Source of the DNA: an uncultured Gemmatimonadaceae bacterium
Lineage (GTDB): Bacteria; Gemmatimonadota; Gemmatimonadetes; Gemmatimonadales; Gemmatimonadaceae
DNA length: 64,000 bases
NCBI GenBank assembly: GCA_963740355.1
Contig: CAVUDW010000003.1
Location: 2,368,001-2,432,000, forward strand
Direction of reading: 5' to 3'
The first letter of the stretch is position 1, and each line of letters begins with the position of its first letter. The translations under genes were made by a program, and so were the position numbers. The notes below the pieces were generated by a model. That model saw nothing but the letters and a program-made list of their open reading frames with translations, did no database searches and had not been told where the DNA came from. Positions 1-28,340 of this stretch are shown piece after piece.

Positions 1-936
1 TACGAGTACCTGTCACCGACCTGGAAGAAGAACGCCGCCACCATCACCGAGCCGGCGCCGTTCGCTCCTGCGGCAGCCGCCGGCAATACCTTCGACCTGC
101 CGGACATCGATCGCACGCCGAAATTTTTCATCGGTGGCAAGCAGGCGCGCCCGGACGGTGGCTACACGATCGCCGTGCGCGGCCCGAATGGGCACACCGT
201 CGGTGAAGTGGGCGACGGCAACCGCAAGGATCTCCGGAATGCCGTCAGCGCCGCACTGGCCGCCAAGGGGTGGGCCCGAGCGTCAGGACACAATCGTGCG
301 CAGATCCTCTACTATCTGGCGGAGAATCTCTCTGCCCGAAGTGCGGAGTTCGCCCGTCGCATCGATGGCATGATCGGCAGTGGCGGTGCCCTCGAAGTCG
401 ACCGCTCGATCGCACGCCTCTTCACCTACGCCGCCTGGGCGGACAAGTACGATGGAGCCGTGCATAGCGTGCCGATGCGCGGCGTGACCCTGGCCATGAA
501 CGAACCGATCGGCTGCATGGGACTCGTCTGCCCCGCTGAGCACCCGCTGCTCGGATTCGTCAGCCTCGTGGCACCTGCCATCGCGATGGGCAACACGACA
601 GTCGTCGTGCCCAGCGAGCTCTCTCCGCTGGCCGCCACCGACTTCTATCAGGTGCTGGAGACGTCGGATGTCCCTGCCGGCGTCGTCAACATCATCACGG
701 GATCACGCACCGCCCTCGCCAAGACACTCGCCGAACACGACGAAGTCGATGGGCTCTGGTACTTCGGCCCGCGCGAAGGTGCGACCGCCGTCGAGCGCTA
801 CTCGGCCGACAACATGAAGCGGACCTGGACCGAGTGGACGCGTCGGGACTGGACCACCACGGCCGAAGGCGAAGGGCGCGACTTCCTGCGCCACGCGACG
901 CAGATCAAGAACATCTGGATCCCGTACGGCGAGTAG
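1..936 (+). CDS. Aldehyde dehydrogenase, C-terminal part (ALDH16-like two-module type); 5' end lies outside the window
   Basis: Frame is open from base 1 (YEYLSPTW...DRTPKFFIGGKQARPD). ALDH NAD-binding motifs EPIG, APAIAMGNT, PAGVVNIITG; ends KNIWIPYGE without a second catalytic domain. Confidence 0.85.
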   Translation, partial: YEYLSPTWKKNAATITEPAPFAPAAAAGNTFDLPDIDRTPKFFIGGKQARPDGGYTIAVRGPNGHTVGEVGDGNRKDLRNAVSAALAAKGWARASGHNRAQILYYLAENLSARSAEFARRIDGMIGSGGALEVDRSIARLFTYAAWADKYDGAVHSVPMRGVTLAMNEPIGCMGLVCPAEHPLLGFVSLVAPAIAMGNTTVVVPSELSPLAATDFYQVLETSDVPAGVVNIITGSRTALAKTLAEHDEVDGLWYFGPREGATAVERYSADNMKRTWTEWTRRDWTTTAEGEGRDFLRHATQIKNIWIPYGE

Positions 937-975
937 CCCCGGCGAATCTGATCACGGCACTGACACCAGAAAATG

Positions 976-1011
976 ACGACGCCCGCGATCTGTGCAGATC
1001 GCGGGCGTCGT
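976..1011. terminator. Hairpin between convergent genes; probable bidirectional terminator
   Basis: ACGACGCCCGCGATCTG-tg-CAGATCGCGGGCGTCGT, perfect 17-bp arms. Confidence 0.7.
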
Positions 1012-1021
1012 GCTTCGGCAC

Positions 1022-1642
1022 TCAGGCCAACGGTGCCAACCCGCTTTCCACGCGACGGCGTTCCGCGACTTCAACGTGATGCTGGTTGTGGAGCAGCGTG
1101 AAAAGCATCATCTCGCGTACAGTCAGCTTGCCGAGCAGCGGATGTGGCAAGCGGTGGGTATCGAGCTGCGATTCGGTCCACTTCTCCATCGCCTGCGTCA
1201 GCCCACGCAGGGTCTCCGAGTGCGCATCCATGATCGCATCGCGACGCGCGGTGTCCCCGTTCGAACGCTCTGGTGACGGCGCGTAGCGGCCGGCGGTCCC
1301 ACCCGCCGCCAGGGCCTGCGCATACATCGACTCGATCTGCTCGTACGACCGCGAGGGCTCCTCGGCACTGCCGAACATCACCCGCAGCGCCAAACGCGGT
1401 ACACGCAGCACGGGCAGCAACGGCGTCATGGAGCGCGTCAGGTGGCGCACATGCTCTGCCGGAGACCAGTGGCTGCCGATCGGTGCGAAGAACTCTCTGG
1501 TGCTGACGCGTGACCAGTAGTCGACTGCCGACTCATGCGCCGACTCCAGTGCCTCGATGATCTCGCGACGATTCGTCAGCGCGCTGTGCACGCTCGGGGC
1601 ATTCAATACGGTGCTCATGACCATCCGGGGGTGACGCGACAA
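1022..1642 (-). CDS. DinB/YfiT-like family protein (start uncertain)
   Basis: WSPAEHVRHL, HPLLGKLTVRE and HNQHH His motifs typical of the DinB superfamily. Confidence 0.8.
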   Translation of the reverse strand: MSRHPRMVMSTVLNAPSVHSALTNRREIIEALESAHESAVDYWSRVSTREFFAPIGSHWSPAEHVRHLTRSMTPLLPVLRVPRLALRVMFGSAEEPSRSYEQIESMYAQALAAGGTAGRYAPSPERSNGDTARRDAIMDAHSETLRGLTQAMEKWTESQLDTHRLPHPLLGKLTVREMMLFTLLHNQHHVEVAERRRVESGLAPLA

Positions 1643-1824
1643 TCGCGGACTGCACGGGAAAGGTAGCCCCGAAGTGGCTCCCGCACGTCAGCGTTCCGCC
1701 GACATCTCGTGATCGCACTGACCGCCGCACGCGTTTGCGGTGACCGTCGGACCGACGAGATTGCTGCCGTTGGAAGCCCCGTGATTTCTCTCAGACCACC
1801 GCCTGTTTTCCGCAGCCCGCTTCC

Positions 1825-2772
1825 GTGTCCGACTCACCAGCCATCGAGCGTTTCCGCGCCTTCCGCAAATCGCTCGGCAGGACACCGCGCCTTCATAAAG
1901 CCATCATCAGCGCACGAGGCCTACAGTTTGCGGTCTTTTCGACTGAAGATCCGCAAATTGGTACGCTGCCGCTGATCTGCGTCAATGGCGGGCTGATTTT
2001 CGACCACAAGCTCCTCTGGCCGGCACTCTCGCCCCTCGCACGCCAACGGCAACTCATCTTCTATGACCAGCGCGGTCGAGGGGCGACGTCCATCCCGCCT
2101 GCCGCCCGGACGTCACGCGTCGAATTCGACGCCGGTGATCTGGCCGCACTTCCGGACGCGATCGGCGTCAGCCGCTACCACCTGCTGGGCCATTCCTGGG
2201 GCGGCGGTATTTCGATGTTGTCGACGCGGTATAAAAGCGCGGGCGTCGCATCGCTCACCCTCATCAACCCCGTCGGCCTGACGTCCAGCTGGCTGCCCGA
2301 GCTCACACCGACCGCCATCACGCGCCTGTCCGGCAACGCGCTCACTCGCCTGATCGCCGCCGACTCGGCAATCCAGCCGGGCATGCCGACTGCCGACGAC
2401 CCTGATGCGCTCAGCGAGTACGCCGCCGCGATCTATCCCGCCTGGTTCCACGAGCCGGACCTCGCCACGCTCCTCGCCCCACCTCGATCCAGCAGCGTCG
2501 CCGGCGCCGCCGTCTCGGCTCGACTCCGGAGGGAAGGCTACGACTGGCGAGATCTCGTCGGCCCCATCCCCATGCCCACGCTGCTGATTCACGGCCAGTC
2601 GGACCTGCTCCCCATCGCCCTCGCGCGCAGCACCACCGCCGCCCTTGGGGCCCTCGCTACCCTCCTCCCGGTTCCAGACGCGGGACACAATCCGTTCTGG
2701 GAACAGCCTTCGATCGTCTTCCCCGCAATCGAAGGGTTCCTCGCGGCTTCCGACCGCTCGACGCAGGCCTGA
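1825..2772 (+). CDS. Alpha/beta hydrolase (proline iminopeptidase-like)
   Basis: YDQRGRG, GHSWGG nucleophile elbow, HGQSD, AGHNPFWE. Confidence 0.85.
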   Translation: MSDSPAIERFRAFRKSLGRTPRLHKAIISARGLQFAVFSTEDPQIGTLPLICVNGGLIFDHKLLWPALSPLARQRQLIFYDQRGRGATSIPPAARTSRVEFDAGDLAALPDAIGVSRYHLLGHSWGGGISMLSTRYKSAGVASLTLINPVGLTSSWLPELTPTAITRLSGNALTRLIAADSAIQPGMPTADDPDALSEYAAAIYPAWFHEPDLATLLAPPRSSSVAGAAVSARLRREGYDWRDLVGPIPMPTLLIHGQSDLLPIALARSTTAALGALATLLPVPDAGHNPFWEQPSIVFPAIEGFLAASDRSTQA

Positions 2773-17357: not shown

Positions 17358-19640
17358 TCAGCGCAGGATTGCGCCCCACAACAGTGGCTGGGTGTTCATG
17401 CTCTGCCCCCGATATTGCGGACGGAAGCCGAACAGGATCGCGTGACCGCGGCCGACCGTGACATCGACCATCGCCGCCTTGCCATTCAACTTCGAGCCGC
17501 CAAGCAACCAGCCGGAGAGGAGTGGGTCGCCAGTCGCTGGATACGACGCGACCGCCACCGCGCGTGTCGCGTCGGTGATCTCGAAGGTCGGGCTGTCCTC
17601 GAACCAGGCCGCTGGTACCGGTGCCGTCATGCGTGACACGATCGGGCTGGCACTGTTGAGCGTGATGGAGAGCAGTGAGCCCGGTGCGTAGAAGTCCGTG
17701 TTCTTCACACCAGTGAGCACGTTCTTCACCGGCAACTCGAGCGTCTCGATCGCATAGTCGCTGGCATCGTTGAACGTGATCAACGTGCCACCATCGTTCA
17801 CGAACGCCTTCAGGCTGGCAGCACCCGCATCACCGAGTCCACCGCGCAGCGAGTCAGGGTAGGGTGCACCAAGGCCACGCCGCAGCTGGTTGGCATTCTG
17901 GTCGGGCAGGATGATCACATCGAATCGCGCCTTCAGGTTGCCCGCCCGCATCTCGGCGTCGAGTACCGTGCGATACGGAATCTTGTTGACGTCGAACATC
18001 CAGCGCGTCCATCCCTCATCCATCGAGGCGTTGTAGCTGCGATAGATCGCGATCCGCTTCGGCGACTTCCCGCTCAAACCCTTCACGCTGAACGTGGGCT
18101 CCGGCATCGCCGCACTCAGTGCACCCATCGCCGGCGCCGCGCCGGTGACGGCATTCACCTGCACGCCGAACAACAGCGGCAGCGTGTGCGCCGTCACGTC
18201 GTACGGTCGCTTCGGCGGACCACCCGGATACTCGCTCAGGTTTGGATACTGCTGGCGCTCCAGCAGCGCCTTCGCATACGATCCGAACGGCTGCATCGTG
18301 GGCACGATGTAACTGCCAGCCGGCACCGACTCGTACACTTCGACCTGCCCGTGCTGCAGCGTCCAGATCAGGCGCTGCAATGCCTGAGGATCTTTCTGGT
18401 CGCGCGGAATCACGAACGCCGACGGCACCTCGGTGGTCGTCCACGGATGATCCGCAGCCATCGCACGATCCGCGATCGAGAGATAACTCTCCAGCCACTG
18501 CCGACGATCGCGCGCCACCGACGCCAGCATCGCCCATGTCGCGCTGGCCTGATAGGCCACGATGTCACCGTACGTCCAGCGACCGCCGGGCCAGCGCGCC
18601 GGATAGTTCCACGATGTCACTCGCGCGTCGTACCCACGCGCGGTGCCGAGTTGCGTGAACGGCATGTCGATCGGCGACGCGAGCCGCGCACTCGCGGTCT
18701 CGGTGAGGATGCGCACGCCGTGATGGTTGAGCGAATACTGCCGCGCCGGCGACCACTGATCGTACGACGCATTCGTCGCCACACCCGTCTTCCCTTCGGC
18801 AATCATGCGCCATCCCATGCTCATGCCCAGCGCATTGGTGCTGGCGGTCAGCACGGGATCGATGTTCGGCTCCACCGGATCCATGTACGGCGGAATGAAG
18901 ATGCGACCACCGTTCGCGCCCTGCTGGTGAATGTCGTTCACGATCGCAGGAGTCCACGGCGAGTACAGCGAGTCGAGCACCATCCGCTGCTCCACCTGCG
19001 TGAACGCATACCAGTCGCGGTTGTTGTCGTGCCCCGTGTAGTGATGGTAGATCTCCGGCGGTTGCGTCCCTTCCGCCGGTGTGCCGAGCGTGCTGCGATA
19101 CCAATCTCCAACGATGTCCACACCGTCAGGGTTCTGGCTCGGCACCAGCATGATGATCGTTTCCTTCAGGATCTCGCGGGATTCGGGCGTGTCACTGCGG
19201 ATCAATCGATCGGCGATCACCAGGGGTGATGAGAATCCGCCGACTTCCGTCGAGTGAATGCTCGATGTGATGAGGACGATGTTGCGCCCCTCGTTCAGCA
19301 GCTGCTCGCGATTGGCGCTGCCACGCTTTCGCGGATCGAGCAACTGCTGCTGCACCTGACGGAAGTGCTCGAGGTTGGCCAGGTTCGTCGAGTCACTGAT
19401 GAACGCCACTATGAACGGCCGGCCCAGCGTCGTCTTGCCAAGGGTGCGAACCTGCACATTGGGACTCGCCGCATCGAGTGCCGTGAAATAGTCGGTGACC
19501 TGCTTCCACGACGGGAGTTTCCGGTCGGTGCCGGGCTCGAAGCCAAGGATGCTGGCAGGGGTGGGCACGGCGGGGCGCTGTGCATGCACTGCGGCAGCAG
19601 CGGACAACGCCACCGCCACGGTGAAGAGACGACGCATCAC
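17358..19640 (-). CDS. M14 family zinc carboxypeptidase with a C-terminal GATase-like domain
   Basis: Signal peptide; IHSTE (HxxE), QNPDG, DNNRD, DIHQ; MDEGWTRW. Confidence 0.9.
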   Translation of the reverse strand: MMRRLFTVAVALSAAAAVHAQRPAVPTPASILGFEPGTDRKLPSWKQVTDYFTALDAASPNVQVRTLGKTTLGRPFIVAFISDSTNLANLEHFRQVQQQLLDPRKRGSANREQLLNEGRNIVLITSSIHSTEVGGFSSPLVIADRLIRSDTPESREILKETIIMLVPSQNPDGVDIVGDWYRSTLGTPAEGTQPPEIYHHYTGHDNNRDWYAFTQVEQRMVLDSLYSPWTPAIVNDIHQQGANGGRIFIPPYMDPVEPNIDPVLTASTNALGMSMGWRMIAEGKTGVATNASYDQWSPARQYSLNHHGVRILTETASARLASPIDMPFTQLGTARGYDARVTSWNYPARWPGGRWTYGDIVAYQASATWAMLASVARDRRQWLESYLSIADRAMAADHPWTTTEVPSAFVIPRDQKDPQALQRLIWTLQHGQVEVYESVPAGSYIVPTMQPFGSYAKALLERQQYPNLSEYPGGPPKRPYDVTAHTLPLLFGVQVNAVTGAAPAMGALSAAMPEPTFSVKGLSGKSPKRIAIYRSYNASMDEGWTRWMFDVNKIPYRTVLDAEMRAGNLKARFDVIILPDQNANQLRRGLGAPYPDSLRGGLGDAGAASLKAFVNDGGTLITFNDASDYAIETLELPVKNVLTGVKNTDFYAPGSLLSITLNSASPIVSRMTAPVPAAWFEDSPTFEITDATRAVAVASYPATGDPLLSGWLLGGSKLNGKAAMVDVTVGRGHAILFGFRPQYRGQSMNTQPLLWGAILR

Positions 19641-19728: not shown

Positions 19729-20712
19729 TCAGCGCGATTCGACCGTGAAGCCGCTCGCGAAGCGCGTGAAGCTGACCGAGTCCGTCATGCGGAGCGCAGC
19801 CCAGGTCTGCATCGACATCCGGAAACTGTGCACGACGATCTCATTTGTCCCGTCACCGTCGACGTCCAGCACCGAGACCAGTTCGTGCAGCGGGTATGAG
19901 AGATCGCGCAGCTTGCCGCTGCGGGTCTTTCCGTTGGCTCGCACCAGCACCACGCGCTCGATCGTCTCCGGCGTGATCTCCAGCGGGCGAATCGTGATCA
20001 TCGCCCGGAAGTCGCCAAAACAGCCGCGCAGGACACTCACCGCTTCCTTGGGCGCCGGCACGAAGCCAGCGATCGCAGCGGCAATCGCCGGCTCGTCCGC
20101 GGGGGGACAGGGTGTGGCCGATCCGGTACGCGGCGGAACGGGTGGTGCGCCACGCCATTCAGCCGGGATGGCGCGCTCGGTGCTATCGAGGGCAGCCAGG
20201 TCCAGGCGCGCGATGATGCGCCGCCCGCTCAGTCGAAGCGCGGTCACGCGCGCTTGGGCGGCGCCGGCGCGCGGGTGCACCGTGATTAGCATCCCTGGCT
20301 GAATCGGACTCCGCGCGGCCAGCATGCGGTCGAACGCGGCGCGGGCTGCATCGGTGGTGCCGACCCCGCCGTCGATGCGACCGATGTCGACCGACGGTGC
20401 GCTGTCGATCATGCGCACCATGAACCAGCGCTGTGTGCGGGGCGCAAATACCGCGCGTTCAGCGAGGCTCGCCGCGTCGGCATCGAGCGCCGTATTGGGC
20501 GCGGCCGGGAGCAAGGCGAGCATCATCGTCATGCTGTCCGGAGGCGTGGAACGGATCGAATCCGGCCGTTCATCCCCCGTGGTGTCGGGAGGGGTGGCGC
20601 TGTCTGCGGCCACAGCCACGGTGCGCGGCGGCTCAGCGTCGCGGGGCTTGCACCCCCCTGCCACGCCAAACGCCAATACCGCACCGACCCCGAGCAGCCG
20701 TCCCTGACGCAT
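19729..20712 (-). CDS. Hypothetical lipoprotein
   Basis: Lipobox AGGC; one FG-GAP-like DVDGDGTNEI motif; directly follows the FHA gene. Confidence 0.7.
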   Translation of the reverse strand: MRQGRLLGVGAVLAFGVAGGCKPRDAEPPRTVAVAADSATPPDTTGDERPDSIRSTPPDSMTMMLALLPAAPNTALDADAASLAERAVFAPRTQRWFMVRMIDSAPSVDIGRIDGGVGTTDAARAAFDRMLAARSPIQPGMLITVHPRAGAAQARVTALRLSGRRIIARLDLAALDSTERAIPAEWRGAPPVPPRTGSATPCPPADEPAIAAAIAGFVPAPKEAVSVLRGCFGDFRAMITIRPLEITPETIERVVLVRANGKTRSGKLRDLSYPLHELVSVLDVDGDGTNEIVVHSFRMSMQTWAALRMTDSVSFTRFASGFTVESR

Positions 20713-21534
20713 TCAGTCGAGGAACTTCAGGACCGACGCCACCAGCCCGTACCGCCAGGCCAGCACACCGGCCAGCACGAGCAGGATCAGCAGCGCGAGC
20801 CCCGTGATCGCCTTCTGCCAGAGCTTCCGCTGGCGGACCTCACGCTCCTCGCGACGCTCCACCACACCGAGCTTGCCGGTTGGGACGCGTCGAGTGTAGT
20901 GGTCGGTCCGCATCGCATGCGCCGTCTCGAGCGCCCGCCGCACCGGCGGATCCACCGTGAACCAGAGCACTGTGCGGCCAATGCCAATCGCATCGCCATC
21001 GCTCAGCCGCGTCGGCTTCTCGACCTTGGCGCCATTTAAAAGCATCAGGGCGCCGATTTCGGGCAGCAGGCGGAGGCTGTCGCCATCCCGCTCCAACCGC
21101 GCGTGCACCCGCGAAACTTCCGGTTCCTGAAGAAGCACGGTACAGCCCGCTTCGCGGCCGATCGTGGTCGCGTCCTGACCGAGGGCGTACACCCGATCCC
21201 GCCGCGCGTCACGGAGCCAACCAGAGCCCGTTCCGGTCACCGATGGCGGGGCCTCCGACTCGAACCGGAACTCGTGGGCACCCATGACGATCACGTCGCC
21301 GGGCTGGAGGCGATGAGGCTCCCCGGTCAGTAATTCGCCATTGACCAGAATCTCCGCCTCGGCACTGGCTCGACTGATCGTCGGTACGCCGTAGCTGCCG
21401 TCACTCATGACGAGCGCATGCAGCCGCAGCAGGTCGGGTTCGCGGATCCGCCACGTGGCTTCGACGCCGCTTCCGATGGACAGGACGCCCAAACCGAGCG
21501 GTCGAGTCTGGTCGCCGAAGATGAGATGGGCCAT
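20713..21534 (-). CDS. Tandem FHA-domain protein with a C-terminal TM helix
   Basis: FHA2 IGRE...VSRVHA...LNG...LSDGDAIGIG; degenerate FHA1 IGSG...LRLHA...VNG...LQPGDVIVMG; terminal hydrophobic helix. Confidence 0.85.
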   Translation of the reverse strand: MAHLIFGDQTRPLGLGVLSIGSGVEATWRIREPDLLRLHALVMSDGSYGVPTISRASAEAEILVNGELLTGEPHRLQPGDVIVMGAHEFRFESEAPPSVTGTGSGWLRDARRDRVYALGQDATTIGREAGCTVLLQEPEVSRVHARLERDGDSLRLLPEIGALMLLNGAKVEKPTRLSDGDAIGIGRTVLWFTVDPPVRRALETAHAMRTDHYTRRVPTGKLGVVERREEREVRQRKLWQKAITGLALLILLVLAGVLAWRYGLVASVLKFLD

Positions 21535-21655: not shown

Positions 21656-22963
21656 ATGAGTGACGAGACCCTGAGCTCAGCTGCCATGCCCTCGACGAGC
21701 CCGACGGAGGCCTACGCCTCCGACCTGGGCCGTTTGCAGCGCACCGCACCGCTTGGCCCAGCGGATGATGCGTGGCTCGTCCTTGCCCATTCCCTGACCC
21801 GCTTCGGCGCCCTCAGCGCGGCGGATTTGAATGAGATCGCGCCGGCATCAGCGGACCTCCTCGCAGTAAGCGCGATGGCGGCTGGGCTGGCTGCCCAGTC
21901 GAGCGTGCTGCGGGCGGCACGGGCCCTTCGAGCCCTGCCAGACGGGTACACCGAGCTGCCCAGTGGCTACGACGCCGTGACGGAGTTGGTGATTGCGACG
22001 CAGGCCGTGGCCGAAGAGCAGGAACTGGCTGGTGGATTCGGGCTGGCGTACGCAACCTTGCGCGCGTTGCGCCAGGCGTTTTCCTCGCGCGTCTCACCGC
22101 GCATCGACGGCAATGTCGTGGCGCAGATCGGCCGTGCCGCGCGCCAGCTGGGTGCCGTCGATGTCGCGCGCGAGATGTACGAGGACGCGATGCTCATCGG
22201 CTATGAATGCGAGGCGCTCGATGTGGTCGCCCGTGCATTGCTCGGCCTCGGTGTCATTGCACTCACACGCGGCAACTATCCCGCGGCGCGCGAACAGTTC
22301 GAGCGCGCGCTGCTGAACGCCGATCGAGCCAACGATCCCGAACTGATCCGCTCCGCGCATCACGGCCTGCTCAACTGTGGCTTTGCCTCGGGCGACCTCG
22401 ACTCGGCGATGGTGCACGGGTGGAATGTGCTGCGGCTCTGCATCGCCCCGGATTCGCGAGCGGAAGCGCTCATGAACATGGGCGAAATCTGCCGACTCAC
22501 CGGTGAGCATGACGCCGCCATGCGCGTCTACGCGGTCGCCATGGAATGGACCTCGCAGCGCCGTGTTCGCCTGCATGCGCTGAGTGCCGCGCTACAGTCC
22601 GCCGTCACGATCAATCGTCTGTCGGATGCGCGCCGGTATCTGGCCGAGCTCACCGAGCTCATGCCCACCGTGCCCGATCCCTATACGCAAGCGAACATCG
22701 GAGTCGAAGTCGCAGATTCGCTCCACCGCCTTGGCGAGTCGACTGCTGCCGCGGCGATGCTCGATTCAGCTCTCTCACTGGCAAGGGAACACGCGTTCCA
22801 CGAACTGGTTCATCGCGCGGAGCAAGCTGCAAGTGTGTGGCACGTCGCACCTGTGCCGGACCCACTCGAGCAGAAGCATTCGCGCCGGAAGCGCCCGTAC
22901 AGGTCCGAGCACTTCCGGATGGTCCTGCGGTCACTGAATGGCCTGACCGCTGCGTCGCTCTGA
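21656..22963 (+). CDS. Cytoplasmic tetratricopeptide-repeat protein without a recognisable HTH
   Basis: TPR-like units QIGRAARQLG..AREMY, GLGVIALTRGNYPAAREQF, ALMNMGEICRLTGEHDAA; no signal peptide. Confidence 0.85.
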   Translation: MSDETLSSAAMPSTSPTEAYASDLGRLQRTAPLGPADDAWLVLAHSLTRFGALSAADLNEIAPASADLLAVSAMAAGLAAQSSVLRAARALRALPDGYTELPSGYDAVTELVIATQAVAEEQELAGGFGLAYATLRALRQAFSSRVSPRIDGNVVAQIGRAARQLGAVDVAREMYEDAMLIGYECEALDVVARALLGLGVIALTRGNYPAAREQFERALLNADRANDPELIRSAHHGLLNCGFASGDLDSAMVHGWNVLRLCIAPDSRAEALMNMGEICRLTGEHDAAMRVYAVAMEWTSQRRVRLHALSAALQSAVTINRLSDARRYLAELTELMPTVPDPYTQANIGVEVADSLHRLGESTAAAAMLDSALSLAREHAFHELVHRAEQAASVWHVAPVPDPLEQKHSRRKRPYRSEHFRMVLRSLNGLTAASL

Positions 22964-22969
22964 CGCGGA

Positions 22970-23176
22970 CTAGTGCCAGGGGATCGTCGGCACTGCGCCG
23001 TTCTGCACGTCGAACCAGGGGATGGTCGGGACGCGCTTGGTCGTGTCGACATCGGCGCTCACCTGCTTCTCCGAATTCTCGACCAGCGGTGATGTCGGAT
23101 CAGCTGCGCAGGCCGAGAGGCCGGCGGCGAGGATCAGCAGAGCGGCGAGTGCGGTGCGGTGGCGGAGCGTCGTCAT
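22970..23176 (-). CDS. 68-aa lipoprotein-signal propeptide with two C-terminal VPTIPW copies
   Basis: AGGA RBS 7 nt before ATG 23176; MTTLRHRTALAALLILAAGLSAC lipobox; ends TKRVPTIPWFDVQNGAVPTIPWH-stop. Confidence 0.8.
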   Translation of the reverse strand: MTTLRHRTALAALLILAAGLSACAADPTSPLVENSEKQVSADVDTTKRVPTIPWFDVQNGAVPTIPWH

Positions 23177-23270
23177 GGCAGTGTCCTGAGTTGGGTGTAC
23201 ATCAAACCTGCCGATGCCGGCTCTGATCTCCGCACACGGTGCGGGCACCACCCTCACCGGATGGGAAACC

Positions 23271-24215
23271 GTGGGATTTCCGTTGGTCGACGACAGCAGG
23301 AACAACCAGAGCCGCCCTCTGCAACGGGTGGTCGCAGCCCTGGTACGCGATCGTCGCGACCTGGCGCGACTGCAGGAGGCACTGCGCCCGTCCGCAGGTG
23401 CGCCACCTGCCGGCGTGCTGCATGCATTCGAGCGCGTCGATCGACTCGATGCAGCGCTGCAGCGCACACACTTCGATGTGTTGGTCATCGAACCGACCGA
23501 TGCCGATGGTCATTCGACCGAGGAGATGATCCGGAGCATTCGCGCCCGTTTTCCGCGTCTCTCGGTGCTTGGCCACGTCGTGATGCGCCCCGGGATCTCG
23601 TCCTCGGTGCTTTCTTTCGCGCGCGCCGGTGTACACGAACTGATCGTCTCAGGTATCGACGACACTGCGATGGTGCTTCGCGTCGCGCTGCAACGCGCCT
23701 CGCAGCGCTGCCTGGCGGAGGAGGTGTACGCGGAGGTGAGCTCATCACTGCCGCGTGAAGCCGCCCGACTCGTGCGTTATTGCCTCGAGCATGCGAGCGA
23801 GTCGCCAACGATCGATGACATATCACGCGCACTAGGTGTGCATCGACGCACGCTCGTCAATCGCATGCAGAATGCGATGCTCCCACCACCGAGCGAACTC
23901 TGGGCCTGGTCTCGCGTGCTGCTGGCAGCGCGGTACCTCGAAATGCCAGGACGCTCGGTGGAGTGGGTGGCTCACACAGTCGGATACCCATCGGCGAACG
24001 CGCTGCGCAACGCACTCAAGCGCTACACTGGACTGGTGCCGAGTGAGTTGCGAGAGGACGACGGTTTCGCCCGTGCGACGCTCGCCTTCCGCGGTGCACT
24101 GCTGGCCACGTCGCGTCACGTGGGACCACTGATGATGCCGGTCGGTCAGCGAACGCGCCTGCAACGAAGTGGTGCTGCATCCGACCCGCTCGCGGGCGTC
24201 AGACAGGCGGTGTAG
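23271..24215 (+). CDS. AraC-family transcriptional regulator with a degenerate receiver-like N-domain (start uncertain, 23214-23328)
   Basis: IDDISRALGVHRRTL and SVEWVAHTVGYPSANALRNALKRYTGLVPSE (double HTH); N-terminal FDVLVIEP...AGVHELIV. Confidence 0.85.
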   Translation: MGFPLVDDSRNNQSRPLQRVVAALVRDRRDLARLQEALRPSAGAPPAGVLHAFERVDRLDAALQRTHFDVLVIEPTDADGHSTEEMIRSIRARFPRLSVLGHVVMRPGISSSVLSFARAGVHELIVSGIDDTAMVLRVALQRASQRCLAEEVYAEVSSSLPREAARLVRYCLEHASESPTIDDISRALGVHRRTLVNRMQNAMLPPPSELWAWSRVLLAARYLEMPGRSVEWVAHTVGYPSANALRNALKRYTGLVPSELREDDGFARATLAFRGALLATSRHVGPLMMPVGQRTRLQRSGAASDPLAGVRQAV

Positions 24216-24767: not shown

Positions 24768-25220
24768 TCAGGGGATCGGTCGCACACTGTCGACCGTGAT
24801 ATACCCACCGCCATCGTTCTCAGGAGTGCCGTACGTCAGTGTTCTCGGATAGCCGAGCTTGTCGTCATAAGTCACTTGAAGCCGTTCAGGCCGCTGGCGA
24901 ATCTCTTCCGCGACCTGCTTGAAGATGCTGTCCACCGGCTGACGCCACGTCAGCGGCTCGGATGCACCAGTGCCGACATCCACGATCGCCGTGACCTGTC
25001 CATTCCGGACGGTGACGCGCTTCGTTCCTGTGAATTCAGGCAAACAGAAGCACAAAACGGTGCTATTAAAGCTATAATTGACCAGCCTGGCGTCAGACCA
25101 CTTCTTCTGCGCGCTCTGCAGGTCGAGCCGCTGACCGAACGGAGACGTCGGATCGGAGGTGCAGGCCGCGGCAACGGCGACCGCCACCAGTCCAAGACTC
25201 GCCAGTCGATGTCTGCCCAT
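24768..25220 (-). CDS. Lipoprotein, DUF6174-like
   Basis: Lipobox AAAC; W...Y.F...CFC...V.V.NG; YDDKLGYP. Confidence 0.7.
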   Translation of the reverse strand: MGRHRLASLGLVAVAVAAACTSDPTSPFGQRLDLQSAQKKWSDARLVNYSFNSTVLCFCLPEFTGTKRVTVRNGQVTAIVDVGTGASEPLTWRQPVDSIFKQVAEEIRQRPERLQVTYDDKLGYPRTLTYGTPENDGGGYITVDSVRPIP

Positions 25221-25357: not shown

Positions 25358-25376
25358 CCGCATACCCGACTAGTTT
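25349..25376 (+). promoter_or_regulatory. Sigma70-type promoter of the suf operon
   Basis: TTGACG-N16-TAGTTT, ending 7 nt before ATG 25384. Confidence 0.7.
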
Positions 25377-25383
25377 GCTCGCC

Positions 25384-26094
25384 ATGGAAGAAATGGGGAC
25401 CGCGCTCGTCGGCTATCGTGGGATTCAGGCCGAACTGCTGCTGGCGCTGAAAAAGCACCAGCCGCTGACGGCGCGCGAACTGGCCGCCCGTTTCGACCTC
25501 ACCCCGAACGCCATGCGTCGCCATCTCGAGACCCTCGAGGCGGCCGGCATCATCCGTCACTCGCGCGAAGTGCGCGGTGTTGGTGGGCCGGTGCATGCGT
25601 TCTCCCTCACCGGCAGTGGTGAGGCGCTCTTCCCGCGTCAGTACGCCACGGTGCTGCTGGAGACGCTCGAGTCCATCGCCACCGAACATGGTCGCGGTGG
25701 CGTGAGCGACTTCTTCCGGCGGAAGTGGACAGCCCTCGCGGCCGAGGCCGCACCCGCGCTGCGACAGCTTCCGCTCACCGAGCGAGTGCAGTTGCTGGCT
25801 GAGTTGTGGACGTCGCTTGGCTACATGGCCGAGGCGGATGTCGATGACGTCACCGGCCTGCCCGTGCTGCGCAAGCACAACTGTGCGATCCGCGCCGTGG
25901 CGGAGCAGTACCCGGAAATCTGCGCGACCGAGGCGGCCTTCATCGAAGACGTGATCGGTGTGCCGACGGAACGCCGCCAGCACATCCTGGCGGGATGCAA
26001 CACCTGTGAATACGTGGTCGGCGGCGCACAGATCGCGCGTCGATCGACCGAGCTGGCAACAAGCAACGCCGGTGACCGGCGTGGAGAAGCGTGA
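25384..26094 (+). CDS. sufR: SufR-type Fe-S cluster biosynthesis regulator
   Basis: N-terminal wHTH ([17 protein letters not shown]); C-terminal HNC...EIC...C ligands; first gene of the suf operon. Confidence 0.85.
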
Positions 26095-26098
26095 CGCG

Positions 26099-27532
26099 AT
26101 GAGCAGCGAAATCGAGGCCCTCGTTGGGCGAGAGTATCAGTATGGATTCGTCACCGATATCGACGCCGACACCATCCCGCCGGGATTGAGTGAGGATGTC
26201 GTACGGCTGATCTCGGCCAAGAAGGCGGAACCCGAGTGGCTGCTCGAGTGGCGCCTCAAGGCCTACCGTCGCTGGCTCACGATGACCGAGCCGACGTGGC
26301 CCAACGTCCACTATCCGGCCATCGACTATCAGGCCGTCCGCTACTACTCCGCGCCCAAGACGGCCAAGCCCCTTGGTTCGCTCGACGAAGTCGACCCCAA
26401 GCTGCTCGATACCTACAAGAAGCTTGGCATTCCACTGCATGAGCAGAAGATGCTCGCCGGCGTCGCCGTCGATGCGGTGTTCGACAGCGTCTCGGTTGGC
26501 ACCACCTACAAGGCCGAGCTGGCGAAGCACGGCATCGTCTTCTGCAGCTTCAGCGAGGCGGTGCACGAGCATCCGGAGCTGATCAAGAAGTATCTCGGCA
26601 GCGTGGTGCCGTACAGCGACAACTTCTTCGCGGCGCTCAACTCCGCGGTCTTCAGCGATGGCAGCTTCTGCTACATTCCGAAGGGCGTGAAGTGTCCGAT
26701 GGAGCTCAGCACCTACTTCCGCATTAACGCCGCCGATACCGGCCAGTTCGAGCGCACACTGATCGTGGCCGAAGAAGGGGCCAGCGTGAGCTACCTCGAA
26801 GGGTGCACCGCGCCCAAGCGCAGCACCAACCAGCTGCACGCCGCCGTGGTCGAGCTGATCGCGCTCGACGATGCGACGATCAAGTACAGCACGGTGCAGA
26901 ACTGGTATGCCGGTGACGAGAACGGCGTCGGCGGCATCTACAACTTCGTCACCAAGCGCGGCAAGGCGATGAAGAACGCCAAGATCTCGTGGACGCAGGT
27001 CGAAACCGGCTCGGCGATCACATGGAAGTACCCCAGCGTGATCCTGCAGGGTGACAACTCCATCGGCGAGTTCTACTCGGTGGCCGTCGTCAACAACATG
27101 CAGCAGGCCGACACCGGCACGAAGATGATCCACATCGGCCGCAACACGAAGTCGAACATCGTCAGCAAGGGCATCAGCGCCGGCCGCGGGCAGAACAGCT
27201 ACCGCGGCATGGTGAAGGTGCTGCCGAAGGCCGAAGGGGCGCGCAACTACACGCAGTGTGACAGCATGCTCATTGGCAATGCCTGCGGCGCGCACACCTT
27301 CCCGTACATCGAGATCAACAACAACACGGCGACGCTGGAGCATGAAGCGTCGACGACGAAGATCGGGGAAGACCAGATCTTCTACCTGAAGCAGCGCGGC
27401 ATGAGCGCGGAAAACGCGGTCAGCATGATCGTCGCCGGCTTCTGCAAGGAAGTGTTCAAGGAACTGCCGATGGAGTTCGCCCTCGAGGCGCAACAGCTGC
27501 TGGGCATCACACTCGAAGGCTCCGTCGGCTGA
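26099..27532 (+). CDS. sufB: Fe-S cluster assembly protein SufB
   Basis: [42 protein letters not shown]. Confidence 0.98.
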
Positions 27533-27581
27533 GCCGAACTGCCTGGACCCGATTTTTCACACACGCTGCGACGAGAACCAA

Positions 27582-28340
27582 ATGAGCATGCTCGAGATTT
27601 CGAACCTGACGGCTACGGCCGGCGACAAGGACATCCTGAAGGGGATCAACCTCACCGTGAACGCGGGCGAAGTGCACGCGATCATGGGCCCGAACGGCAG
27701 CGGCAAGAGCACACTGGCGCAGGTGCTGGCGGGTCATCCGTCGTATGAAGTCACCGGCGGTTCCGTGCTGTTCGAGGGCGAGGACCTGCTCGAACTCGAT
27801 CCAGAGGTGCGCGCCCACAAGGGTGTCTTCCTCGCCTTCCAGTACCCGATCGAGATTCCGGGCGTGAGCAACGCCTACTTCCTGCGCAGCGCCTACAACG
27901 CGATGCGCGTGGCGCGCGGCGGCGAGGAGATCGACCCGATGGAATTTCTCGACGTGATGGAAGAGAAGCTCAAGATCGTCGAGATGGATGACGCCATGCT
28001 CTCGCGCAGCGTGAACATGGGCTTCTCCGGCGGCGAGAAGAAGCGCAACGAAATCCTGCAGATGGCGGTGCTCGAGCCGAAGCTGGCGATCCTCGACGAA
28101 ACCGATTCCGGCCTCGACATCGACGCACTGCGCGTGGTGGCGGAAGGTGTGAACAAGCTCCGTCGTCCGGACAACGCCGCCATCGTGGTGACGCACTACC
28201 AGCGCCTGCTGAACTACATCGTGCCCGACTTCGTGCATGTGCTGGCCGGCGGCCGGATCATCCGCAGCGGCACCAAGGAGCTGGCACTGGAGCTGGAAGA
28301 GAAGGGCTACGATTGGCTCCTGCAGGAGGCATTGGCGTGA
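27582..28340 (+). CDS. sufC: Fe-S cluster assembly ATPase SufC
   Basis: GPNGSGKST, FSGGEKKRNE, LDETDSGLDIDAL. Confidence 0.98.
   Translation: MSMLEISNLTATAGDKDILKGINLTVNAGEVHAIMGPNGSGKSTLAQVLAGHPSYEVTGGSVLFEGEDLLELDPEVRAHKGVFLAFQYPIEIPGVSNAYFLRSAYNAMRVARGGEEIDPMEFLDVMEEKLKIVEMDDAMLSRSVNMGFSGGEKKRNEILQMAVLEPKLAILDETDSGLDIDALRVVAEGVNKLRRPDNAAIVVTHYQRLLNYIVPDFVHVLAGGRIIRSGTKELALELEEKGYDWLLQEALA

Follow-up and report, generated by a model that had tools for sequence, protein, structure and literature searches.

A three-gene cassette, composed of a gene for a tetratricopeptide repeat (TPR) protein, a convergent gene for a small lipobox-containing peptide and a divergent gene for an AraC-type regulator, occupies positions 21656 to 24215 of a 64,000-nucleotide stretch of DNA from an uncultured Gemmatimonadaceae bacterium (contig CAVUDW010000003.1, positions 2,368,001 to 2,432,000; this whole stretch is hereafter called the window). 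Sequence comparison indicates that the window locus is one copy of a Gemmatimonadota-wide cassette, which is real, widespread and, as far as the literature was searched, undescribed. An earlier reading of the letters of the window (the original prediction) had interpreted the three genes as a peptide-signalling cassette of the Rap/Phr type. Its observation is confirmed and its interpretation is partly supported, because the comparative signature that it foresaw at the loci of TPR homologues, i.e., recurrent small lipobox genes with variable C-termini and linked AraC-type genes, was found in 79 and 77 of 80 loci, respectively. A Rap/Phr-like autoinduction loop appears to be the best explanation of the cassette, albeit a tentative one to which we assign a probability of about 0.4.

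The synteny of the cassette was assessed on 80 distinct loci, comprising the window, 10 further loci of its genus, the 29 best loci of a profile search and 40 loci hand-picked from the listed matches; this set is not random and includes second and third cassettes of the same genomes. Two loci were dropped from it, one because a contig end cuts the TPR gene (L013, in which the peptide is present) and one because it is the window itself (L036). The strand opposite the TPR gene was scanned from 150 bp before to 450 bp after the TPR stop codon with a filter that demands a start codon, an n-region with Lys or Arg, an uncharged hydrophobic core, a lipobox Cys at residues 15 to 40 and no more than 130 aa in all. 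The lipobox open reading frames (ORFs) that pass this filter in all loci but one have C-termini that are variable and sometimes repeated, as foreseen; the same filter retained 0 of 80 stretches on the TPR strand and 2 of 690 random stretches of the same loci. The sole miss, L091, is a solo TPR paralogue that lacks the regulator as well. The regulator, encoded on the TPR strand just past the peptide gene, was identified with a local profile (76 loci by a stricter position rule), its misses being a contig end, L054 and L091. The three-gene synteny thus reaches far beyond the genus. TPR orthologues with 58–71% identity occur in 17 of the 19 other genomes of the genus, and distant homologues from other genera and families of the order (16–24% identity) keep the same neighbours: a convergent lipobox ORF of 43–52 aa and a divergent HTH_18 regulator were present in all eight distant loci inspected.

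With a profile of 12 TPR proteins (E ≤ 1e-10), the TPR family was detected in 208 of 401 Gemmatimonadota genomes, a tally in which the unpublished genome G185 counts as one. These include 80 of the 93 genomes of the window's family and 95 of the 166 genomes of a sister family, with fewer at the class and phylum levels. No genome has more than five TPR matches in the 401-genome table, and 12 were found in G136, which was searched exhaustively. In this class-level genome, three of five loci (L111, L114, L117, L119 and L120) have a convergent lipobox ORF whose long tail ends in Gly-Ser-Gly. The peptide is present in 10 of the 17 class- and phylum-level loci; the seven others have weaker TPR matches and may represent other TPR families. 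Class-level TPR homologues L104, L107, L108 and L109, with open frames of 590–626 aa, share a conserved N-terminal extension of about 180 aa that has no Pfam match. In a library of 1.84 billion representatives, 1,295 TPR representatives were retrieved at E ≤ 1e-30; the close TPR loci belong to the Gemmatimonadaceae, and the nearest Atlas clusters all belong to the Gemmatimonadota. The regulator family is broader than the TPR family and was found in 288 of the 401 genomes at E ≤ 1e-20, with G185 again counted as one. Since none of nine regulator loci devoid of a TPR gene (in the window's genome and in four genomes without a TPR match) carries a lipobox ORF upstream, the peptide gene tracks the TPR gene and not the regulator family.

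The peptide gene of the window (22970..23176, minus strand) starts with an ATG at 23176, preceded by an AGGA 9–12 nt upstream, and encodes 68 aa. The ORF listing agrees with the claim that it converges with the TPR gene (21656..22963, plus strand), the two stop codons being separated by 6 bp (22964–22969). Residues 1–23 (23108..23176, minus strand), as read from the sequence, display all the features of a lipoprotein precursor, i.e., Arg residues, a hydrophobic core and the lipobox L-S-A-C, of which Cys23 is the predicted lipidated N-terminus. The signal peptide is followed by a D-P-T-S-P-L stretch, a variable middle part, K-R and two VPTIPW units on the minus strand, the first of which (residues 49–54; 23015..23032) comes just after the K-R, and the second of which (residues 62–67; 22976..22993) is followed by the C-terminal His. 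The product had been described as an exported peptide with repeats, and this description was borne out. No Pfam or NCBIfam family matches the 68-aa peptide at cut-off, and NCBIfam searches with 11 peptides gave sub-threshold matches only, all on the lipoprotein signal regions. The genome contains no second copy of the peptide, every other match having E ≥ 0.07.

The conservation of this ORF indicates that it is a real gene rather than a chance frame, because homologues occur at the same position in all 11 loci of the genus, each with two to five xPT[ILV]PW units at the TPR stop codon, because a search of 5.8 billion proteins returned 22 homologues among 23 candidates, and because synonymous codons are used in the repeats. 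Most of the database homologues are unnamed, and the named ones are called hypothetical protein. The 33 instances of PT[ILV]PW in the 11 loci use four Pro codons and three Thr codons, and this varied synonymous writing of the repeat units argues for selection on the peptide. In the alignment of 23 sequences from the genus, A17, A18, L20 and C23 are among the invariant columns, as are P50, T51, P53 and W54 of the first unit. More generally, little or no variation is seen in the signal peptide, at Cys23, in the P-T-x-P linker or in any P-T-x-P-W unit. The residue that precedes P-T (V, A, I, T, R or G) is usually uniform across the units of one protein and differs among proteins.

A wider view of peptide anatomy is provided by 87 peptides collected from cassette loci, all of which have a lipobox and signal-peptide features. 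The signal has a median length of 22 residues and the mature part a median length of 23 residues (range 17–79). In this set, the TPR and peptide stop codons lie between −4 bp (overlapping stops) and 176 bp apart; an overlap of 37 bp occurs in one locus. Behind the lipobox Cys, 68 of the 87 peptides carry a motif of the form x-x-[PAVMST]-T-[AGS]-P, and a close variant is found in most others. Past this linker, the tail cannot be aligned between lineages and is hypervariable, and sister cassettes carry different tails. Cysteines are absent from 41 tails and number exactly two in the other 46, without a single tail containing one or more than two; they are spaced by 6–11 residues in 45 cases and by 17 residues in one. 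Such zero-or-two parity would be expected if the exported peptide formed a disulfide. A G-[SA]-[GSDN] motif is found near the end of 38 tails. Tandem repeats are present in unrelated lineages, with a heptapeptide repeated three times in L104, a hexapeptide twice in L107, a nonapeptide twice in L120 and two to five units in the window's genus, the repeats having arisen independently. Those of the genus may be amplified copies of the general linker, as the P-T-x-P-W unit resembles P-T-x-P.

The TPR protein (435 aa) is made of N-terminal helices followed by a TPR superhelix and contains neither a helix-turn-helix (HTH) domain nor a signal peptide. It matches the Pfam families TPR_2 (43 bits, cut-off 27) and TPR_12 (43.5 bits, cut-off 30.1), and no Pfam domain other than TPR, HTH included, scores above cut-off. 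In NCBIfam, none of the three cassette genes is named above cut-off, the TPR protein matching generic TPR models only. The absence of an N-terminal signal sequence, judged by eye, points to a cytoplasmic location. The structure model is all-helical, with 21 helices (predicted local distance difference test, pLDDT, 94.8; predicted template modelling score, pTM, 0.91); the N-terminal helices extend up to about residue 92 and the regular superhelix comes after. Foldseek searches with this model placed the TPR domains of LGN/Pins at the top (E of about 2e-6), MalT domain III at rank 28 and Rap proteins at ranks 30–49. NprR and Rap come next after LGN/Pins in fold match, with scores close to those of generic TPR proteins, and the Rap-like fold alignment takes in RapH, whose structure was solved in complex with Spo0F. 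A PDB profile search with the 12 TPR proteins (99 matches at E ≤ 1) showed no RRNPP receptor among the 60 matches listed, which are LGN, Pins, consensus TPR, OGT, KLC and similar proteins. As modelled, the fold is of the peptide-binding TPR superhelix type, and neither its length nor its layout conflicts with Rap. The predicted complex of the TPR protein with the mature peptide (residues 24–68) obtained a score of 0.01 (mark 0.32), which counts neither for nor against binding.

The third gene (23214..24215, plus strand) encodes a regulator of 333 aa, counted from the longest ORF, with a receiver-like domain (about residues 38–150; 23325–23663, plus strand) and an AraC-type HTH (residues 204–281; 23823–24056, plus strand). 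The HTH matches HTH_18 (50.7 bits, cut-off 33.6) and HTH_AraC (28.8 bits, cut-off 26.6) in Pfam, as well as AdpA, VirS and Rns in the PDB. The structure model (pLDDT 79.7) contains, in this order, a (beta-alpha)5 domain, a long helix and the AraC HTH. The strands of the first domain span residues 38–43, 67–71, 89–92, 117–123 and 142–146, with helices in between, and Foldseek matches it to FixJ, StyR, RcsB and the DrrB receiver (TM-score 0.80, root-mean-square deviation 2.6). A canonical phosphorylatable receiver has an acidic pair after beta1, an Asp after beta3, a Thr or Ser after beta4 and a Lys after beta5. In the window regulator, the acceptor position is occupied by Glu and the beta4 position by Val, and the Lys after beta5 is absent. 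Of 77 members of the regulator family, 65 have Asp at the acceptor position, 11 have Glu (those of the window and its genus) and one has Ala, always with Pro next; the beta1 loop is mostly Pro-Asp, not an acidic pair, Thr follows beta4 in 51, and none has the Lys after beta5. The model and these residues together indicate, as implied by the term pseudo-receiver in the original prediction, that the N-terminal half is a degenerate receiver; degeneration has gone furthest in the window. As its receiver lacks the acidic pair and the Lys, the regulator may plausibly be controlled by a partner protein.

The cassette is frequently extended by a stand-alone receiver. Such a gene lies directly behind the regulator gene in 28 of 40 loci with 3-kb flanks, and Pfam confirms it as Response_reg in six of eight annotated loci; it is absent in the window and its genus, and in 12 of the 40 loci overall. 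The frequent membership of this canonical receiver in the cassette opens a phosphorelay alternative, which is weighed below.

The peptide and regulator genes diverge from a region that contains a conserved, apparently non-coding block (23225..23285, with no strand assigned). Every base of this block is conserved in the alignment of the 11 genus loci, codon periodicity is absent from it, and the variation further downstream is codon-like. An inverted repeat, CCGCAC-N3-GTGCGG (23230–23244), and a nearby GGAAA...TTTCC pair (23262–23280) lie within the block, which we infer to be a candidate operator/promoter. Because conservation without codon periodicity favours both a regulatory role and a later start, the regulator probably begins at GTG 23271 or TTG 23283 instead of 23214. 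The divergent gap had been put at about 95 bp; this value holds if the in-frame GTG 23271 is used (94 bp) and falls to 37 bp from the ATG 23214 of the longest ORF. A scan for sigma-70 promoters found 0 sites, with a consensus that may not fit the promoters of Gemmatimonadota. No terminator-like site was found between the convergent TPR and peptide genes, so their transcripts probably overlap.

In the proposed autoinduction loop, the regulator would drive the peptide gene and its own gene from the conserved control region that they share. The peptide would be exported through Sec, lipidated, cleaved by signal peptidase II and, where two cysteines are present, oxidized. It could then be displayed, or cut behind the linker so that the tail is freed, which in the window's genus would consist of two to five xPT[IL]PW units. 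The most speculative step is the return of the tail, whole or as a fragment, as the ligand of the cytoplasmic TPR protein, which, like an HTH-less Rap, would act on the receiver-like domain of the regulator and, where present, on the stand-alone receiver. Closure of the loop would result in cassette-specific autoinduction, and paralogous cassettes with different tails would serve as separate channels. Such a loop is favoured because the minimal conserved unit consists of the TPR protein, the peptide and the regulator, because every paralogous peptide keeps its own TPR protein and regulator, and because tandem short units and lipobox export are known from pheromone propeptides. A more ambitious form of the proposal, in which the cassettes would constitute a phylum-wide family of TPR-receptor pheromones, independent of the Bacillota RRNPP systems, re-imported across two membranes and divided into orthogonal pherotypes, appears doubtful.

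Several points weigh against the autoinduction loop. The release of the tail is a proposal, and its import and binding are speculative. The outer membrane and the lipid anchor both obstruct a diffusible, re-imported signal; the four genes for SBP_bac_5 (OppA-family) binding proteins in the genome show a capacity for peptide import only. The disulfide loop to which the paired cysteines of about half of the tails point would suit action outside the cytoplasm, being typical of extracytoplasmic ligands, and would be awkward with a cytoplasmic receptor, as it would be reduced inside the cell. The canonical stand-alone receiver suggests a kinase input. Nor does covariation single out the TPR protein as the partner of the tail. 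A point in favour of the loop is the faster divergence of the TPR protein (mean distance of 0.563 in close pairs, vs. 0.414 for the regulator). The partial correlation with the tail across all pairs, in which kin are not independent, is r = 0.339 for the TPR protein and r = 0.199 for the regulator, and this order is reversed in close pairs (r = 0.331 and r = 0.476, respectively). A partial Mantel test exceeded all 999 permutations for both proteins alike and thus does not discriminate between the partners.

Two other explanations stay alive because of the pair of membranes, the lipid anchor, the disulfide that the cysteines imply and the frequency of the stand-alone receiver. According to one, the lipopeptide would be the regulated product itself, acting at the surface or in the periplasm in recognition, adhesion, antagonism or envelope modulation, with the TPR protein and the regulator as its dedicated control pair and a tail whose variability reflects diversifying selection on an exposed molecule. 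This serious, if somewhat unlikely, explanation would account for the membrane anchor implied by the lipobox, the folded extracytoplasmic loop implied by the paired cysteines, the divergent promoter region that the peptide shares with the regulator, and a cassette without a conserved import or processing gene. However, a TPR/regulator pair of its own for each paralogous peptide is more typical of signal-receptor specificity, tandem short units fit the release of several short peptides better than a folded effector, and no conserved immunity, export or partner gene lies beside the cassette. The other explanation keeps the peptide as a signal and moves its detection outside: an unlinked histidine kinase would read it in the periplasm or at the surface and phosphorylate the stand-alone receiver, and the TPR protein would act on the receiver or the regulator as Rap does on Spo0F, without binding the peptide. 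An extracytoplasmic receptor would suit disulfide-looped tails, the recurrent canonical Response_reg gene would have its role, and the presence of RapH in the fold alignment would be in keeping with it. Yet the window and the 12 loci without this receiver still keep the TPR protein, the peptide and the regulator, no kinase gene is conserved (a HisKA ORF was found in only one of eight loci), and the peptide gene tracks the TPR gene, so that sensing of this kind seems quite unlikely.

It is highly improbable that the TPR protein binds the prepeptide or a remnant of the signal peptide on the cytoplasmic side, where it would serve as chaperone or gatekeeper, or would monitor export. Prepeptide and TPR protein would then share one compartment and import would be unneeded, and the nearest precedent would be the enterococcal sex pheromones, which derive from lipoprotein signal peptides. 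The C-terminal part of the TPR protein also weakly matches the SycD/LcrH chaperone model, but the score of 24.8 bits is far under the cut-off of 104.8, and the variable, selected part of the peptide is the exported tail, with its cysteine parity and repeats, not the signal peptide. Slighter still are the chances that the peptide is a precursor of a ribosomally synthesized and post-translationally modified peptide (RiPP), whose repeats or loops would be cores modified by enzymes encoded elsewhere, with the TPR protein as recognition or scaffold protein. Repeated short cores and tails rich in Trp, Pro or Cys do resemble multi-core precursors. However, no modifying enzyme, peptidase-transporter or radical SAM gene adjoins the cassette in the window or in the eight distant loci, in line with the original prediction, which had argued against a RiPP on the grounds of the window, and a lipobox leader would be unusual for a RiPP. 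Readings of the peptide as an envelope-stress lipoprotein or a bacteriocin were ranked low, as no modifying, immunity or export gene is linked to it.

When compared with known systems, the cassette should be filed as an analogous, independently built system that most resembles Rap-Phr in its working. The claim that it is RRNPP-like stands for the layout of the TPR receptor and for the adjacent propeptide; it does not stand for sequence homology or for occurrence in Bacillota, and it is on account of these two failures that analogy, rather than membership, is proposed. Like Rap-Phr, the cassette pairs an HTH-less, cytoplasmic TPR protein with a neighbouring gene for a small Sec-exported propeptide with a variable C-terminal part, exists as several paralogous copies per genome and has a receiver-domain protein as its proposed target. 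Unlike Rap-Phr, with which no sequence homology was found, it resides in diderm Gemmatimonadota and not in Bacillota, its peptide gene converges on the TPR gene, with frequent overlap at the TPR stop codon, its tails often carry a cysteine pair, and its partner is a cassette-encoded AraC regulator with a degenerate receiver. NprR-NprX, PlcR-PapR and AimR-AimP share the TPR superhelix, the adjacent propeptide and the expected autoregulation, but their HTH is fused to the receptor, whereas here it resides in a separate AraC-type protein. In the enterococcal pheromone/PrgX systems, a lipoprotein precursor gene also supplies the peptide for a cytoplasmic RRNPP receptor; there, it is the signal-peptide fragment of an unrelated lipoprotein, whereas here the mature tail is selected and variable. 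In Agr, ComCDE and ComX-ComP, which are peptide systems read by two-component kinases, the signal is likewise exported, processed and in some cases cyclic, its specificity groups are hypervariable, and a receiver protein is involved, but the Gemmatimonadota cassette has no kinase or processing/export gene, and its cyclization would be by disulfide. The matched LGN/GPSM2 and Pins entries are, by their titles, complexes with partner peptides or proteins (NuMA, Frmpd4 and Inscuteable); their kingdom and biology are unrelated, and the likeness is only that of a TPR superhelix of similar length.

Two features of the peptide have counterparts among Bacillota propeptides. Tandemly duplicated pheromones are described for Phr propeptides (PMC11343458), and lipobox export is a minority route among RRNPPA propeptides (211 of 2,734; PMC9765709). 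An RRNPP survey assigns peptide signals to Bacillota and states that Pseudomonadota and Actinomycetota typically use enzyme-made small molecules (PMC10075063). The term 'RRNPP-like' has been applied to the E. coli lipoprotein NlpI, a different matter from the present cassette (PMC7430634). No description of the cassette was found among 8.1 million PubMed Central (PMC) papers and 0.36 million preprints, the broader matches being judged by the titles and abstract starts listed (12 of 93 and 12 of 220). RRNPP combined with Gemmatimonad returned nothing, and RRNPP combined with diderm a single paper, which by its title and the start of its abstract concerns plasmid mobility.

Peptide signalling through cytoplasmic TPR proteins is treated as a speciality of Bacillota and their phages. 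If the proposed loop is true, the cassette would be the first such peptide pheromone system described in a diderm phylum, and would provide a first candidate cell-to-cell language for a poorly understood and abundant soil phylum. It would make import-based peptide sensing in diderms, the release of lipidated peptides and the diversification of specificity testable, and, as the predicted parts are small and easy to synthesize or express, these hypotheses are cheap to test. If the peptide is instead an output, what the cassette defines is still an undescribed family, one of small, hypervariable lipopeptides served by dedicated regulators.

The genes next to the cassette differ between lineages. 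In the window, they encode an FHA protein, a 327-aa lipobox protein, a 151-aa protein without family and a DUF6174 lipoprotein; in the eight distant loci, they include receiver, MerR-like, LemA, M48, GspH and HD-GYP genes. The 273-aa FHA protein (72.5 bits), which has a C-terminal membrane helix, and the 327-aa lipobox protein, which has no Pfam family, are encoded by abutting genes (19729–21534, minus strand) that diverge from the TPR gene; an FHA gene also lies upstream of the TPR gene in L010, and not in other families. In the sister-family loci L022, L025, L026, L027 and L028, a MerR-like gene and a stand-alone receiver gene (none detected in L026) lie past the regulator gene. LemA (four of five loci) and an M48 peptidase (two of five) are encoded downstream, and a GspH-like or N-methyl-motif pseudopilin (four of five) and a receiver-HD-GYP protein (three of five) upstream of the TPR gene. 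The M48 peptidase is a lead as a candidate processing protease. In L021 (2516–3340, minus strand, and 63–2421, plus strand), from one genome of the window's family, a second AraC-type gene lies beside the cassette regulator, followed by EAL and GGDEF-receiver genes, a hint that the cassette may be connected with cyclic-di-GMP control there. Further out in the window are genes that look like ordinary housekeeping neighbours: one for a 760-aa secreted protein with a Peptidase_M14 domain (17361–19640, minus strand), that for the DUF6174 lipoprotein (24768–25220, minus strand) and a group at 25375–28340, in which an ArsR/MarR-like HTH gene overlaps the start of SufB (SUFBD_core) and is followed by a gene for an ABC ATPase that is SufC-like by position.

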